Of a stretch of DNA of 64,000 bases, positions 23,718 to 32,997 are shown piece by piece. The notes beneath the pieces are model-generated. The model searched no databases. It was given only the letters and a program-made list of their open reading frames with translations, and had not been told where the DNA came from. This stretch comes from Massalongia carnosa. Its lineage: Eukaryota. The DNA lies in the NCBI GenBank assembly GCA_965645245.1, contig OZ287074.1, forward strand, positions 1,860,001-1,924,000, in the 5' to 3' direction. Positions within the stretch are counted from its first letter, which is position 1; each line of letters begins with the position of its first letter. The translations under genes and the position numbers were made by a program.

Positions 23718-24589
23718 TTTTGTTTTGTTTTTGGTTTTGGATGCGTGAGTAGAATGTATCAATCACTCACGATGGGGAACTTGAAATCGAGGGGTCTAAA
23801 CAACGGAATGCGAAGTAAATATGCAATGGAAACCATGCGCGCGTGAACCCCATTTATATACTTTTCATCTAATCGTTAACTTACCTAAGTTAGTTTCATC
23901 CCCAGAAGAAATCCAGAAATCCGTATGAATAATTGCTTGCTTGAATTGACTATCAAACCCGGTGGTTTGGATAGCTAGGTTTAAGATCGGTAACGCTCGG
24001 GATCGAGATAACCGAAGGATCCGAAGCCGGCAAAGAGGGGAAGGATCTGGATCCGTGTTCCGAGTTGGGGATCGCGGTTCCCGGCCCAGGAAGGGAAGAA
24101 GGGGGATAGGTAATCAATCTGATATATACCCAGGTTTCTTTTCTTCGCCGACTATTGTTGGAGACTGGTTGCGTTTTTCAGCTGGCTACAGTATGTACAA
24201 GTAACTCCAGGACATTGCCAAATAATTACGACTTTTACCCTATGAAACTGATCGACCTGAGTATTTCTTAAATCTACATGACACTATTTATTTCTCTAAG
24301 GATTATGGAATTACGCATGGAAGCTCTCTCTAAACCTCATCAAGGTTTTCCACACAAGAGTGTTGAACGGGAGAGTTAATCCTTACCCGAAGCCTCATTC
24401 CGCGTGCCCCATCCCTCACTTTGAATTGCGGCCTTATGTACTCTGTACTCGTATTCGTTTAGCCTCACGTTATGTGGTTAATTATTAGGCAACAACTACG
24501 AGTAACTAAACCTCATCGAGGGTTTTCACAAGAGTGTTGAACGGGAGACTTCTAATTTCTTTGAATTCCCGGTCTTACGGAACTAGTTA

Positions 24590-27289
24590 ATCGTTGGCTA
24601 GTCGCTCGCTTAATCCTCTCTCCAAGAAGCATTCGCTTCTAGTCGGGGAAATAGGCTCGCAACGTTAAACCACCACTAAAGCACCACCGCATCATTTGAA
24701 TTACTATCACATTTACTATCACATTATTATATTATTATCACATTGTGGGTCCACCTACCTGCACCTGGCGTAATACGATGACTACGTCTTGGTGCTTGGT
24801 TTGGTGGATGATGAATGGATTCTATCTGGGAAGGGCTACTACCTATAGTGGGCGAACACGTGATAAGCACGTGCCCGCTTGTTCTAGCCCTTCCGATCCA
24901 TTCCATTCTAGCCTTATCTGGCTAGGTCCCTTCCTTCTAGAATCCCCCTAGAATCCCCTTCTGGAATCCCCCTTTTGGTACCTACACACATCATAAATCA
25001 TTGCTATCTATATCTACAGTGGATTCTGTATCCTTACAAACACGTATTAGTGATGCTAAAACATTCTTGTTGGAAAATCCTGACGAACGAACTGCATGCG
25101 CAGCTCAGATATTCAAAATTCGGCCTACAACGTTGTACAGCTCTATTGCGACTGATAAGAAATCTTCTTTTTCTGATATGAAATCTTCTTCTAACAAGAA
25201 ATCTTCTTCCAGTGCAAAAAGTGCAAGAGGTGGACAAAACAAGATACTTGAGGAGCATCAAGTAAAAGCGATTCATCACTTTATTCGATCCTTACTTGCA
25301 CAGGGTATTCAACCATCGCACGAAGTTGTATTCAATGCAATTGTCAGTTTAAAACGCGGGCAAAATCCTGAGTCGAGTGGACCTACTCTACGCTGGTTCA
25401 GAACATGGTGGAAAAAGAATAACCTACACAAGATCAAGACTAAGCCATTAGCAATGATACGATTCACCGCTGCACAAGAGAAGGATATACAGGCATGGTT
25501 TGTAGATTATTAGACAAGCTTTAAAGACGTTACAGATCAAAACAAAGAAGAATATTGTCAATTTCGATGATGCAGGCTTTCGTGTTGGGTGTATGAAAGG
25601 GCATCAAATTCTGGCATTCACAGACGTATTAGAAGTTAGATTCTATATTCTTATTCATTTATTCAGCAAGTTAAATATATGTTTTAGTTCTATGCGATAA
25701 GTCCTGAAAATCGTAAATCTCTCACGATATTTGAATGCATCAATGCAGCGGGCGACTATCCTCCACCACCTTTAATTCTTATACAAGGACATGAAATCAT
25801 GATGGACTGGTTTTCAAAAGAGCTGCCAAAGCGAACTCGAATTATACCTTCAAAAAACGGATTTACCTCTGACAAGATAGCACAGGTGTCTCTTCAGCAT
25901 TATATTGATCATTCAGACTCTGGACCAGAAGCAGACTGGAAAATAATGCTCATGGATAATCATGGCAGTCATTGTACTCCTGAGTTCATAGCTCTTGCTA
26001 ATATAAATCACATTCGTCCTTATCCACTTATACCGCATCTTACACACTGTATGTAGCCGCTTGATGTTGGAGTGTTTCAACCTTATAAACACTGGCATGA
26101 TATGACAATTCAAGATGCTCTACTGGAATTCAATGTTGAGTATACATTACAGCGATTTCTTGCGGATCTTACTAAGATACGTGATAATACTTTCAAGAAG
26201 TGTACTATTCGAAGTGCTTTTGAGAAATCAGGAATGTGGCCTGTTAATGCTAAAAACTGCATCTCACTGCTTAAAACTTTCAAGCCGCCTGATGCTCAAG
26301 AAAAGCTACACAAAAAGAAAAAGAGCCTACTCTTCCAATCTTGCCTCATATTCAGCCAACATCCTCAATGGATGTTGAAATAGGACTTCAAACATGGCAG
26401 AAGAAAATTCAACAAGGAATGTTGTGGAGTGATCCGGCTCGCTCAGAGCAATTTGAGTCGTTTGTTAATGATACAAAAACCGTTTGTACACAAGCTACGT
26501 TTAATGATATTCAGTTATCTATATATCAGAAAAGAAGAGAAGATGACTTAAAACAGAAATCTACCTCTCGTAAGCGATTACGAACCTTAGGTTCAGGATT
26601 AGGGCTTACTAAAGAGAATGCTGAGGAGATGATTGCAGCAAAGGAAAAACAAGCTAAAGAAACAGAAGCAAAGAAGCAGCATCAGACATGGATGAAGATT
26701 TGGCGTATGGAAAGAGACGCCAAATATGCCGAAGGAGTGATTGCTCGAAAGCAAGAAAGAAATCGTTTACGACAAATTTAAGAGCTTTCAAAAAAATATC
26801 TTGCTATTTCCTCCGAGCATCTTATTCCTATTCCCGATCCCGAAGCAATTTGGAAGGCAACAGATGTTACTTGACAAGAAGAAGAGAGAAAGAAAGCGAA
26901 AAAGACTAAATCTCAAGTATATAATGAAGATGAAGATGAAGATGAAGATGAGGCGGAGACAACATTCATCACAGATGTTACAGGTGATTCTTCTTTGCAA
27001 AGAGATTTTCTGCCGTTTGATGAAGACGATACTGATGGAGGCAACGAGTCTGACAATGATGTACAAGAACAATTAGGATATTACTAGGTTTCAGCTCTTT
27101 ATAAAGCGGCAATAGTAATTTAACGATGTGATAAGAATATAATAATGTGATAGTAAATGTGATAGTAATTTAAATGATGCGGTGGTGCTTTAGTGATATG
27201 GTGCTGGTTTAACGTTGCTTTCCTACGAAGTTTGCTTTTCCCGACTAGAAGCGAATGCTTAGAGGATTAAGCGAGCGACTAGCCGACGT
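24590..27289 (+). mobile_element. pogo/Fot1-family DNA transposon with long TIRs, decayed
   Basis: Inverted termini of about 155-165 bp (24590-24745 vs 27124-27289). The right end is ...GCCGACGT followed by TA. Transposase remnants lie inside. Confidence 0.9.
25001..27086 (+). pseudogene. pogo/Fot1 DDE transposase pseudogene
   Basis: HTH and CENP-B-like N-terminus, VNFDDAGF, LMDNHGSH and THCM*PLDVGVF, with in-frame stops and frameshifts and an acidic tail. Confidence 0.88.
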
Positions 27290-27735: not shown

Positions 27736-30700
27736 TCACATAAATGACAAACCCTTCGTCACATCATCCACAGCAGCCCGCACGTCTCCACCGGCCTGAA
27801 TCAAAGCGTCTTCGGCAGCTCGACGAGTTAGCTGAAACCCCATCAGCAACGCAATATGTTCTTCATCGAACACCACACGGTTGAAGAAAACCGATTTAGC
27901 AACCTCGAGGCTTCCAGCCGCATCCACTAAATGCGCATAGGCTTCTTCATGAGTAAGTCCAAGTCTCACCATAGATAGCATATCTGTTTCGGGAAACGAC
28001 TGCGAGTCCGCTTCGGGGACCGACGCTGAGGCTGCGTGGGGAAACGAAACCGAGGCCCCTTCGAAGTCTTGTACGCGTTTGACCTCCACGGCTCGTAGCT
28101 TGGTCATGATATCCTCGAGCTGCAGCGAGTCCATGGCAGCGGCATTCATGTGAACCACGTGCACCGTCGGGTCCGTCGGGTCCTGGCTCACCGAGTAGCC
28201 GTGCAGGTTCAGAAAAGCCTGGATAGTGCCCGAATCCATGCAGCCTGCAAGCGCCAGATTGATCATCTCGAGCCCGGCACTCCGGAACGCCCTCCAGGGG
28301 GTTGTGCCAGGGACACGGCCCGCATAGGGGTTAATGGGGATGCCAAGCATCTTGGCCCAGGCGTTGAAGATAAGGTAGAAACCGCAGGTGTTTCCCCCTT
28401 GTTGCGAGGGAGTTGTGATCACTTCATGTACGAACTCGGGCCACACGGTGGCTGGATTGCCATGTGAGTCGACACCCATCCAGCCGGTGTGTCGAACGAG
28501 TCCATTTGCAGCTTCGTGGATGTCTTCGAGCGGTACAGTTCCGGGCCGGCTGTCAAAGATAGATATTTTGACCTTGTCGTTTTCCAACGATATTCGTTCA
28601 GCGACAGCTAGCAGATGATGGCCTATTGGATCATGCCTTCTTGTTCTTCCTTTTGGTCTGGGGGGGGGTCTCATTGATCCCGGGGGTGACTTTACTTTGT
28701 TAACATCTTTCGTTGTTGCATTATCAGGCGTGTCCGGCATCTCCATGTTGAAGAGCAGTGGCATGATCAATGGATGTGGCCTCAAGACAGCAGTCAGACC
28801 TTCGATTTTTGTAGCCTCGGTTCTATTTGCTCGAAATGTGTCGCAAGTGCCAAATGCATACTGAAATCCCGCCGCACGTAGTCCTTCCCAAATAGAAGCT
28901 ACACCAAGCACTACTAAATCGTCCTCCATATCGAGAGGCGACCGGATTTGCGTGATGGGGTTATTTGTCAACCGATGCCTGAGATTTCGATTGCGGTCTA
29001 ATCCTTTACGAAATCTCATCTGCCATGCAGCTGCGGTATTTGTTCCACGTGGTAGTCGTGGGCGACCCACAGGGCATGGCCCAGCTTGGAAGTCTTCTTG
29101 TCGATGCATGTCTGCCACCGTACCAGCCAAAACTGCTCCGTTCATCAAGACAGTCTGGATGTTACGTAGTCCGTGCTCCTTGTTTGGAGAGGTCGTTGCC
29201 TCCTCCGTCCTAACGGCCCCCCAATCCTGTGGTTGAACATATTCGTAACATTGGAAAAATGCCCTGATCGTCCGGCTATCGAGTTTCCCAGCAAGTCCTA
29301 GATTGATCAGCCTCAATGCTTCTGCATAGAATCTAGGACTAATCGTAATGTCCGGCTGGGTCTTTAATGGGAGGTTAGTCATTGTGGCCCAAGCGTTTAG
29401 AACGGTGTGGATTCCAGATGTATCATTATGCTGTTGGGGTGGAACTAGCCATTCCTCATCTCCAAAGACTGGCCAAGTATCTCGAAGCCATCCCGAGTTT
29501 CGGATTAGGTTTCGAGCAGTTCTGCGGACAATCCCCTTCTTTACCACATCTTTACCACTGTCGAAGAAATCAATGCTGACAGTCTCGTTGTCACTATTGA
29601 AATGAGCGACTGCAAGGATTACATGATTAAGGGGGCCCCGGAGGTTCAAATCCGAAAGATCTGGGTCGTCTTCATTGTCGTGTTGAAATTGGGTAAAGGT
29701 TTTTGGACGGGGCAAGACATTTGGCAGTGTTTCGATTTCCACCGCGTTTGATGACTCGTCGAAAAATAACGGCATGATAAACGAAGGCGATGTTCCTACA
29801 CAAGCCAGATTATGTAGGCGCTGGTGTCGCGCAAGATTGTATAGCCTTGAATCGCCGAAGGTGCCTCCTGAACCTTGGATGATCAAGCCAAGCCACAAGG
29901 ACGCTATAGCGGCGACAATATCATCGACTCCCAACCCTGTATAGCCATTGAGTTGAAGCTCACGCTGGGGAGATTCTCCTCCATCGACTCTCCTGCTGTA
30001 CCTTGCAATACAAAATTTTAACCGTCGACGATACTCCTGACACCAAAATGAAGAGCTAGTGAGTCGTTTTTCTGAGGCCCGTCCCCTCGCACCTTCCCCG
30101 GTTAACGTTGATGTCAAAATCCCATTCTGAGCCGGATTGCCCTGAACTCCAGTGCGCGGAGGTCCAGATTTAGTGAGCGCCTGACTAGGGCCACTTAATG
30201 AACCGCCAGATCTAGTTCCACCTGATAGACCTTTAGAGGAAATTCAAATGCAAAACCAAAAGCGACAGATGTAGAAAGAAGCGTACTTGCGTCAAGTCTA
30301 GGTTTCTTCGCTTTTCGCTCGTTATCGCTTATATTTTCAAACTGGGCATGAAAAATTGAGCTCTGCTGGCCTCCGTCCTGAGCAGTTAAGATTAACAACA
30401 GAGTGAGAAAAACAGGTGAGTTATTACCTTCCTTTGCGCGTTCGGAACGAAGCCTTTCGCCGCTGCGGATGTGCCCCACCAGAAAAGGAAAAACCTCTCA
30501 AACTCAATGACGGCAAAATCTGGTAAAGGTCCAGCAAGTGTTCCTTCGCCAAATGGAACGCCATTGACAACAAGACGCTCCTTGGCCTGATTCACAATGA
30601 AATGGTTGTATTTGCATAGCTCGGGCTCCTGAAACCCATTCTTTTGTCTGAGTCGACGAATATCTAGGAACAATGTAGGGGTGTAGGACGTCTTTTTTTT

Positions 30701-31354
30701 AAGATTTTTCGACTCGGCTTGGGATTTCAGTTTCGGAGTGACACTAAGGATGTTAGGTCAATCTATAAAACGATTGCTTAAGACGTACAAGTTTATCTGC
30801 AAACGATCTGCAGCCCAACCATAGTTGAGATCCTTTGTAAACCTTGAAACGGGACGTTGACTATTTCCAGAGTCGCAGCTCCACGTATCACCATCTGGTT
30901 CGGTTGCAAGATACTGCCACCAACATAAGAATCCTGAGGTTTGTCCTGGTTTATGAAAATCAGCTCGATCACTGATCTCCTCCCATAATGTAGCTCCTTG
31001 AGCGACCACTTCCTGAAGAAGAGAACGGAGCTCTTGATTAGGAAGATCGTTAACAGTGCTCTGCCAATCCCCAAAGTCAGGTGTCAACGGGGACGGTATA
31101 GACGCTTCCTGATGGATCAGGCGAATTTTCAAGTTTGCTGACAAAGGTGTAATATCAAACTCTGTGGGCGTTTTACGTGTTATAGCATCCGGCTCATCTC
31201 TAGTTGTAATACCAGGCACGGCATGAGGTTGAAGCCCACGCCCGACCGGCGAATTGGCGTTCAAGGAGTTCTCGTCCACCGTTTTTGGCGGAACAACCTT
31301 TACTATTCTGCCATGCGGGCTTCCCGGCATTTTTGGAGCCTTTCTCGGTGGCAT
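27736..31354 (-). CDS. Multi-domain protein: FHA-like region, two Ulp1/C48-like peptidase repeats and two C-terminal UBA-like domains; 4 exons, about 1,100 aa
   Basis: Exons join in frame: 31354-30789, 30743-30428, 30377-~30293 and ~30230-27736. The repeated H..(I/F)FDS..QQ...[S/C]G....NAWA motif occurs twice. The C-terminus carries UBA-like LLMGFQLTRRAAEDALIQAGGDVRAAVD. Confidence 0.72.
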
Positions 31355-31740: not shown

Positions 31741-32532
31741 TCACCCAGCATACTGATCCACAGTAGAAAAAAGTCTAGAGTTGTCGACTTTGCACTCCGT
31801 CAAGTCATCTCCACATCCAAGGGCTATCCTGATCTCGGTCGGAGTGACATCCGCACACATGTTAGTGATGATATCAATAGCAAAGGCACAAAGTGAAGTA
31901 TCCGCAATCTTAACATCCTCGCACAGATCGGGATCGCTTAGGTCTAACGATTGCTGCATTTGCGGATGAATTGAACTCAACTCGTTAGGTTGGAGAGGAG
32001 ATATGGCTGAAATGATCAATGGCGATATGCCAGTTCCCTCATCCAGGTTTTTCGATGTAGAGGACGAATAAGAAGTGCAGTTCATGGGCGAAGTCTCAAT
32101 CTCTTGAATCGCTAACCTAGAGTCTTGCCGTAGGTTTGGTGATGTCTGCCCAGAATTATCTACCACTTTCCCCAAATCGCATAATCTTCGGCGTTCAAGC
32201 TTCTGTTGTAGCAATACAGCCTCTGGGCTCATGTTGCCATGTTGGTCGTGTGACCCGGCCCGCTCGTCATTCCCTCGAGAAGACAGCAAGGCCCGAAGTC
32301 GTTTGTTCTCTTCAAGCACACTCCTGGCCGCTGCTTGGATTTCCAAAGATGCCTGGACGCCAAGTCTTTCGCAACCCCTCATCTTTGACTCCAGCTCTTG
32401 TAAATACTCTTTCTGCTTAGCGCGTGAACGCCGTTGGTTATCACGGACTCGACTCGCGCCCCTATTGGCCTGTTCCATGCATGTTAGATGAATCTTCTTG
32501 TTGGTAGTGGGTTGACTTGCTTGGGGACACAT
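31741..32532 (-). CDS. bZIP transcription factor-like protein
   Basis: Basic region RVRDNQRRSRAKQKEYLQELE, coiled coil AARSVLEENKRLRALL, and a C-terminal C..A..II...LGC...C.VDN..LF motif typical of this fungal family. Confidence 0.82.
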   Translation of the reverse strand: MCPQASQPTTNKKIHLTCMEQANRGASRVRDNQRRSRAKQKEYLQELESKMRGCERLGVQASLEIQAAARSVLEENKRLRALLSSRGNDERAGSHDQHGNMSPEAVLLQQKLERRRLCDLGKVVDNSGQTSPNLRQDSRLAIQEIETSPMNCTSYSSSTSKNLDEGTGISPLIISAISPLQPNELSSIHPQMQQSLDLSDPDLCEDVKIADTSLCAFAIDIITNMCADVTPTEIRIALGCGDDLTECKVDNSRLFSTVDQYAG

Positions 32533-32997
32533 AGTTTCATGTAACTTGTTTGCAATGATGTTACAATTTCAATCGGTAAGATGATGAGATTGGAACACCA
32601 CTGTATGTTTTACTCGTCATAATTTAGAGTACTTCTACTCCTGTGTAATTGCTATTATGGGGAGGTGTTGGTCTCTATTGAGTGTATCTGATCTTTGGTG
32701 ATGGTAGTGATATGATTAATGTTAGGGTTTGAGATTTTACAGGGTCTCTGTCAAATCATCGGGTGAAATATGAGCCTTAAACCGAAATGTACATAAAATG
32801 TCTTCACAACGATCATAGATAACAACACGAAAAAACAAGATACCCATCAGAGTCTTGCAGTTCCCGACGACAAGGTTTTATAGTGTTTGTAAACTTAATC
32901 ACGAACTTATACCGCAAGCCATAACCGTCTGCACCGTCTTTTGCCATGAGGTGTCCATAGGTACATTACTTAGCTATGTCTTCTGAATAAACCCAAA

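Follow-up and report, generated by a model that had tools for sequence, protein, structure and literature searches.

A gene for a protein with two protease-like repeats was found on the minus strand of a 64,000-nucleotide stretch of the Massalongia carnosa genome (NCBI GenBank assembly GCA_965645245.1, contig OZ287074.1, positions 1,860,001 to 1,924,000). This whole stretch is referred to here as the window, and its first letter is position 1. The gene extends from an ATG at 31354 to a stop codon at 27736, and excision of three GT-AG introns leaves one frame of 1,155 aa. A preliminary description of this DNA had proposed four exons in a single frame of about 1,100 aa; the single frame was found, although it is longer than proposed. 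The motifs read at that time, including the Ser codon TCT at 29416-29418 and the Cys codon at 28384-28386, were all located at these places on the minus strand. The predicted parts of the gene are as follows.

30789..31354, minus strand: exon 1 (aa 1-188), N-terminal low-complexity stretch and N-terminal half of the FHA-like domain
30744..30788, minus strand: intron 1, 45 nt, GT-AG, with a branch site and an in-frame stop inside
30428..30743, minus strand: exon 2 (aa 189-294), C-terminal half of the FHA-like domain, conserved and with a GPLPxF motif
30378..30427, minus strand: intron 2, 50 nt, GT-AG
30287..30377, minus strand: exon 3 (aa 295-324), basic motif KKPR resembling a nuclear localization signal (NLS) at 30297-30308
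30231..30286, minus strand: intron 3, 56 nt; alternatively 65 nt, to 30222, with the acceptor 9 nt further and the frame unchanged
29098..30045, minus strand: clan-CE repeat 1, putative pseudo-protease (aa 387-702), Ser at the nucleophile position
28090..29025, minus strand: clan-CE repeat 2, intact (aa 727-1038), His-Asp-Gln-Cys site complete
27874..27996, minus strand: UBA-like unit 1 (aa 1070-1110), three helices in the predicted model
27748..27870, minus strand: UBA-like unit 2 (aa 1112-1152), Pfam UBA_HYPK below cut-off, UBA-fold matches at Z 6-7.7

The active-site positions of repeat 1 are His527 (29623-25), Asp548 (29560-62), Gln590 (29434-36) and Ser596 (29416-18, TCT). Those of repeat 2 are His862 (28618-20), Asp884 (28552-54), Gln934 (28402-04) and Cys940 (28384-86, TGC), with His863 at the gatekeeper position. 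Both repeats are 31% identical over 262 columns (E 1e-28), and their alignment scores 101 bits compared to a maximum of 29.6 in 1,000 shuffles, which bears out the internal duplication noticed earlier. We infer the splice junctions and co-splicing from the sequence and from colinear homologs rather than from RNA. Across intron 1, exon 1 can be aligned with the homologs P0034 (from aa 107) and P0170 (from aa 68). The latter, an NCBI gene model of Toensbergia leucococca, is colinear with the window protein from aa 68 through both repeats, and 37 of the 157 family proteins analyzed match the N-terminal part of the window protein in the same open frame as a protease domain. These homologs argue for the proposed single polypeptide. 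Contigs of four public runs (at most three samples from two studies) contained no differing letters in the covered parts; of these runs, X1 and X2 may be the source, and the contigs of X4, from the second study, include the Ser codon without reaching the Cys codon.

The exon 4 product was modeled with AlphaFold2 (77-row alignment; predicted local distance difference test, pLDDT, 87.7). All 23 best VIA matches of this model were CE-clan enzymes, with the highest Z values for NEDP1 (12.8), NopD (12.8), SENP3 (12.6), SENP1 (12.5) and Ulp1 (12.5); identity to NEDP1, SENP and Ulp1 was 12-14%, at a root-mean-square deviation (rmsd) of 3.2-3.9 A over 169-200 residues. Most matches align to repeat 2, and three (Z 6.9-8.4), plus RavZ (7.5), to repeat 1. 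The Foldseek matches of the model were all from the CE clan, yet none at E <= 0.001, and the model of homolog P0096 matched the clan in Foldseek at E 7e-4. RavZ appeared at Foldseek ranks 2-5, but the corresponding RavZ/ATG8 reading was set aside because of an rmsd of about 20 A and a VIA Z of 7.5. Sequence searches of the window protein against Pfam, NCBIfam and PDB returned nothing beyond a sub-threshold UBA, and the Pfam search gave no match to PF02902 (C48). Among homologs, PF02902 was found over the cut-off in 1 of 38 (the seven-repeat P0077), under it in another 1 of 38, and weakly in 2 of 50. ESM Atlas features placed repeat 2 near PF02902 clusters at 0.92-0.93. A clan-CE (Ulp1-like) fold of both repeats, as claimed in the preliminary description, is supported by the model with NEDP1, Ulp1 and SENP as its best matches, and UBA folds are among its structural matches as well. 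The domain order, the CE fold, the intact site of repeat 2 and the Ser in repeat 1 are evident at the level of sequence and predicted model.

A phmmer search returned 365 representatives (clusters at 50% identity) at E <= 0.001 and 94 at E <= 1e-30. The family analyses cover 157 proteins, namely the 150 best-listed of these 365 and seven more; most homolog sequences are gene-caller frames that may be exon fragments, and therefore all domain counts are minima. With the window model counted in, one CE domain was found in 94 of 157 proteins, two in 56 and more in seven. Names could be attached to 7 of 20 clusters checked (Byssothecium, Amniculicola, Lignoscripta, Usnochroma, Caloplaca, Toensbergia and Xylographa), and 14 of 24 profile matches have NCBI names, all of lichen genera. 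We take Byssothecium and Amniculicola to be Dothideomycetes, and the other named members to be Lecanoromycetes. All are annotated as hypothetical or uncharacterized, and the UniRef label of P0077 is 'ubiquitin-like protease family profile domain-containing'. With respect to distribution and copy number, the family is found mainly in lichen-forming fungi and the gene is single-copy in its genome. None of 48 pattern matches in prokaryote genomes and none of 74 in viral contigs was confirmed as a family member, and viral structures gave no match at E <= 0.001. The distant members P0077, P0092 and P0115 harbor five to seven CE repeats in which intact and dead sites are mixed; of these, P0077 and P0092 belong to named Dothideomycetes. 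In P0047, an OGFr_N domain is inserted between the two CE repeats (E 1.5e-21), and such a domain is weakly detected at the N-terminus, ahead of the FHA-like domain, in P0062 and P0078.

Across the family, an intact His-Asp/Asn-Cys triad is present in 164 of 227 covered CE domains, including 86 of the 93 single domains that are covered and 49 of the 55 last repeats, and 98% of the 164 intact domains keep the oxyanion Gln. All triad columns are covered in 51 of the 56 two-repeat proteins (the other five are not covered); 33 of these are dead-then-intact, 13 have both repeats intact, four are reversed and one has both dead. Hence the Ser/Cys asymmetry described for the window protein is common, but it is not fixed. 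At least one intact triad is retained in 50 of the 51; no weight is placed on the apparent scarcity of double-dead proteins (Fisher p 0.04), as the test takes no account of kinship. The nucleophile position of first repeats (n = 52) is occupied by Cys in 18, Ser in 24 and other residues in 10, compared to Cys in 49 of 55 last repeats. A subclade with reversed asymmetry (P0043, P0045, P0068, P0072 and P0075) carries Cys in the first and Ser or Thr in the last repeat. A repeat tree built from a hand-picked 42 of the 56 two-repeat proteins (the other 14 were omitted as short, near-duplicate or distant) separates all first from all last repeats with support 96/94, which points to one old duplication; a wider FastTree shows separate later duplications in P0150, P0060, P0032 and the Dothideomycete arrays. 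On the 42-protein tree, at least six changes between Cys and non-Cys occurred in first repeats and one in last repeats. A single Cys loss in first repeats was rejected (approximately unbiased test, p 3e-43), and some of the changes may be reversions. In comparison with 21 hand-picked closer homologs, the two repeats are conserved to the same degree (identity 0.40 for repeat 1 and 0.42 for repeat 2, p 0.19), and the repeat-specific Arg, His and Tyr columns of first repeats are kept with or without Cys. Conservation despite the changes at Cys fits a pseudoenzyme that serves in binding and does not fit decay, in agreement with the pseudo-protease proposed at first for repeat 1.

The fold of the N-terminal domain rests on the model of the single-repeat homolog P0096 (pLDDT 87.0). 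Every listed structural match of its residues 51-185 is an FHA-containing chain, the best being a GarA complex (Z 6.9, rmsd 2.7 A, 85 residues), with Z 6.2-6.4 for Mek1, Rad53, KAPP and EmbR; these values are modest (under 8) but all of one kind. The window protein matches a family profile built without its own row over aa 204-294, in exon 2 (E 1.2e-22), and the exon-1 half can be aligned only with the closer homologs P0034 and P0170. An FHA-like N-terminal domain, as first suggested, is therefore backed by the predicted fold of a homolog. The phosphothreonine-binding residues of FHA domains are Gly-Arg, Ser-x-x-His and Asn-Gly. They are present in FHA loci of the window's own genome but absent from the family alignment, and Pfam FHA gave no match in any of 50 alignment members. 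A profile alignment to eight FHA domains of the same genome was weak (E 0.008, reversed control 0.3), and in it the His column is replaced by Ala or Leu and Asn-Gly-Thr by variable residues. Without these residues, phospho-recruitment via a canonical FHA is not supported, contrary to the earlier suggestion of recruitment by phosphorylation. An ESM Atlas query with exon 2 gave no usable match, and 0 of 33 candidates for short stand-alone FHA-like fragments were confirmed.

In the exon 4 model, the last 45 residues match UBA-type three-helix bundles, consistent with the tandem UBA-like C-terminus that had been predicted. Unit 2 reaches E 5e-5 with Pfam UBA_HYPK, below the cut-off, and unit 1 aligns with family UBA units in a profile that was seeded from unit 1 itself. 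The canonical UBA loop is Met-Gly-Phe/Tyr; the window protein has Leu-Gly-Leu in unit 1 and, in unit 2, Met-Gly-Phe shifted by two columns. Of 117 proteins with a tail, 53 have UBA-like units behind the protease, compared to none of the reversed tails, Pfam UBA exceeds its cut-off in P0006, P0023, P0026 and P0038, and FHA-like and UBA units occur together in 19 proteins of the family set. These tails tie the protein to ubiquitin, and ubiquitin binding is predicted. NLS-like motifs are present in 32 of 41 proteins, compared to 13.2 expected, and no signal peptide was detected in the window protein, which is thus probably nuclear.

Two neighbors of the gene bear on its origin.

24592..27288, plus strand: degraded DDE_1 DNA transposon with terminal inverted repeats (24592-24746 and 27123-27288)
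31741..32568, minus strand: bZIP-like open reading frame, labeled from sequence reading, without a Pfam match

It had been hinted that the gene might be borne by a transposon. The DDE element ends 448 bp from the stop codon, and Ulp1 appears in the available literature on Ginger and Mutator elements. However, the gene lies outside the terminal repeats, and the transposon has 97 matches in the 52-Mb genome compared to one for the protease gene. No transposase match was found in 39 related metagenome loci (12 groups at 90% identity, some with short flanks). The upstream bZIP-like gene recurs in 8 of the 12 groups, also beside single-repeat members, and a Zn2Cys6 gene in 4 of the 12. Single copy, position and kept neighbors argue that the gene is not transposon cargo, a reading that we regard as refuted for this locus, an ancient transposon origin aside. 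In all four groups with full synteny the gene has two repeats, the first of which carries Ser, Gly, Cys and Ser in these groups, and a functional link between the bZIP-like frame and the protease family is possible. The transposon copy carries an insert of about 245 bp (24742-24987) that sister copies lack; it is a separate small repeat with nine other places in the genome (95-99%), and a short direct repeat lies left of the transposon (24330-24377 and 24506-24551, 81-96%). Several metagenome copies of single-repeat homologs (L021-L024, L027 and L032) have in-frame stops or frame changes, which may reflect introns, assembly errors or pseudogenes.

We tentatively conclude, with a confidence just short of even, that the gene is a resident one and that its product is a clan-CE cysteine protease acting in the ubiquitin system, probably in the nucleus and most likely as a deubiquitinase, its substrate being presumed. 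Its UBA units would capture ubiquitin chains and repeat 2 would be the cutting domain. Repeat 1 may be a non-catalytic binding or scaffolding module, either as an extra modifier-binding site or as a brace for repeat 2, and the FHA fold may dock a partner without canonical phosphothreonine reading. SENP1 C603S and SENP2 C548S were solved in complex with SUMO, which shows that Cys-to-Ser CE domains still bind substrate. An aromatic gatekeeper guards Gly75 and is found in more than 90% of members of Gly-Gly-cleaving families, with ZUFSP as the exception (PMC7391069); it has also served as a screen filter (bioRxiv 10.64898/2025.12.04.692294). Since the gatekeeper is not conserved in the family, specificity would stem from the UBA units or the pseudo-domain and not from a Gly-Gly tunnel, as in ZUP1, which relies on non-catalytic ubiquitin-binding domains (PMC8776766). 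ZUP1/ZUFSP and VTD, the latter lineage-restricted in fungi, are deubiquitinases without an aromatic gatekeeper (PMC9741609), as are SnJos1/2 (PMC10643670); ZUP1/ZUFSP and VTD are papain-type enzymes with Cys before His, and the likeness is one of working, not of membership. Bacterial CE deubiquitinases (XopD, NopD, ChlaDUB1, SseL, OtDUB and SnCE1) share the fold (Z 8.6-12.8) and show that CE enzymes can act on ubiquitin, but they are secreted effectors, unlike this intron-containing host gene. With Ulp1/SENP and NEDP1/DEN1 (MEROPS C48, PF02902) the protein shares the fold, the His-Asp-Gln-Cys order, the eukaryotic host and the probable nuclear location. It differs from them by the missing PF02902 match and His-Trp, by its low identity, and by a duplicated CE domain of about 300 aa with extra C-terminal helices and FHA and UBA appendages. 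The FHA-like domain in turn resembles those of GarA, Rad53, Mek1 and KIF1A (P0096 residues 52-183, Z 6.1-6.9, rmsd 2.6-3.8 A, 84-104 residues), without Pfam FHA matches or phosphothreonine-binding residues.

Several observations weigh against a deubiquitinase. The residue after the catalytic His is Phe, Tyr or Trp in just 52 of the 164 intact domains (Leu in 42, Ile in 31, His in 26, Thr in 9 and others in 4), the closest structural matches are SUMO/NEDD8 proteases, and of five Simkania CE proteins four were without deubiquitinase activity (PMC10643670). UBA-fold matches of the tail include NAC, HypK and EF-Ts, the canonical loop is conserved only in part, with its Gly present in 35 of 62 units, and no UBA was detected in 64 of 117 tails. 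Repeat 2 of the window protein reads His-His at the catalytic His and gatekeeper, and the three canonical Pfam-C48 loci of the same genome are all His-Trp; that the genome already has these loci counts in favor of the deubiquitinase reading. The protein thus resembles a CE protease yet lacks the aromatic residue that defines C48-type deconjugases. For the ubiquitin-like-protein deconjugase proposed in the preliminary description, the CE fold and the intact repeat 2 triad hold; it may or may not be a conventional Gly-Gly deconjugase, as the aromatic gatekeeper is not conserved.

A ubiquitin-guided endoprotease or clippase, in which the UBAs find ubiquitylated proteins and repeat 2 cuts a non-Gly-Gly site, be it within the tail of ubiquitin (after Arg74) or in the substrate, seems rather unlikely. 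Ddi1 and SPRTN are examples of ubiquitin-guided cutting of substrate. The gatekeeper position is Leu, Ile, His or Thr in 108 of the 164 intact domains, which should admit larger P2 side chains (PMC7391069), the UBA-like units are placed behind the protease, and bacterial Josephins clip ubiquitin after Arg74 (bioRxiv 2024.07.24.604956). However, many clippases retain the aromatic residue according to the same source, and gatekeeper loss therefore does not predict clipping. That the protein is a fourth SUMO/NEDD8 deconjugase, whose UBAs would raise its affinity for hybrid chains or NEDD8, we consider improbable. The best structural neighbors, the description of eukaryotic CE enzymes as SUMO/NEDD8 proteases (bioRxiv 2024.07.24.604956), and NUB1 UBA domains among the weak sequence matches of the tail speak for it, but such enzymes keep His-Trp, like the three canonical loci, and the Z values of NEDP1, SENP and NopD are tied at 12-14% identity.

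Repeat 1 might instead be a live Ser-His-Asp hydrolase, since 42 of 63 non-intact domains have Ser in place of Cys, and of these, 33 keep His and Asp/Asn and 21 also Gln, including repeat 1 of the window. Ser is, however, one base change from Cys, the Ser-bearing close homologs P0002, P0018 and P0009 have lost His, other close homologs carry Phe, Ala or Gly, and Gln falls to 41% in Cys-less first repeats, so that we give this reading little credence. Still less credence is given to a YopJ-type acetyltransferase. The CE clan includes acetyltransferases with the same residues (PMC7391069) and HopZ1a, AvrA and PopP2 are among the fold matches, but at Z 6.4-7.1, far under the 12.5-12.8 of the proteases, and the UBA tails would be left unexplained. 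Returning to a protease of the ubiquitin system, a more specific form of it is put forward with greater reserve: an undescribed eukaryotic clan-CE family, with the window protein as founding member, would act on ubiquitin without a Gly-Gly gatekeeper. Chains would be selected by the UBA tails together with the repeatedly disabled twin domain, and the active domain would cut at a non-standard bond, either removing ubiquitin or clipping it.

No description of the family or its layout was found in the literature searched, with most subscription journals and supplements outside its scope, nor in the available passages of PMC10318531 and bioRxiv 10.64898/2025.12.04.692294. To this extent, the earlier statement that no characterised fungal Ulp/NEDP1 was known to have such a layout still stands, and the family is a real and testable, undescribed family-level variant of the known clan CE, with a putative enzymatic role. 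CE deubiquitinases have been described as bacterial (bioRxiv 2024.07.24.604956). If true, a CE enzyme that is encoded by the host and linked to UBA domains would extend the ubiquitin toolkit of eukaryotes, and a family unseen by Pfam and gatekeeper-based screens would show what such screens miss. The family would then represent a new lineage-restricted class of deubiquitinase or clippase that is conserved among lichen-forming fungi, and would provide a natural series in which enzymes have turned into pseudoenzymes. Both-active (P0010), first-dead (the window gene) and last-dead (P0043) versions of one architecture occur naturally, which makes the origin of a pseudoenzyme directly testable.

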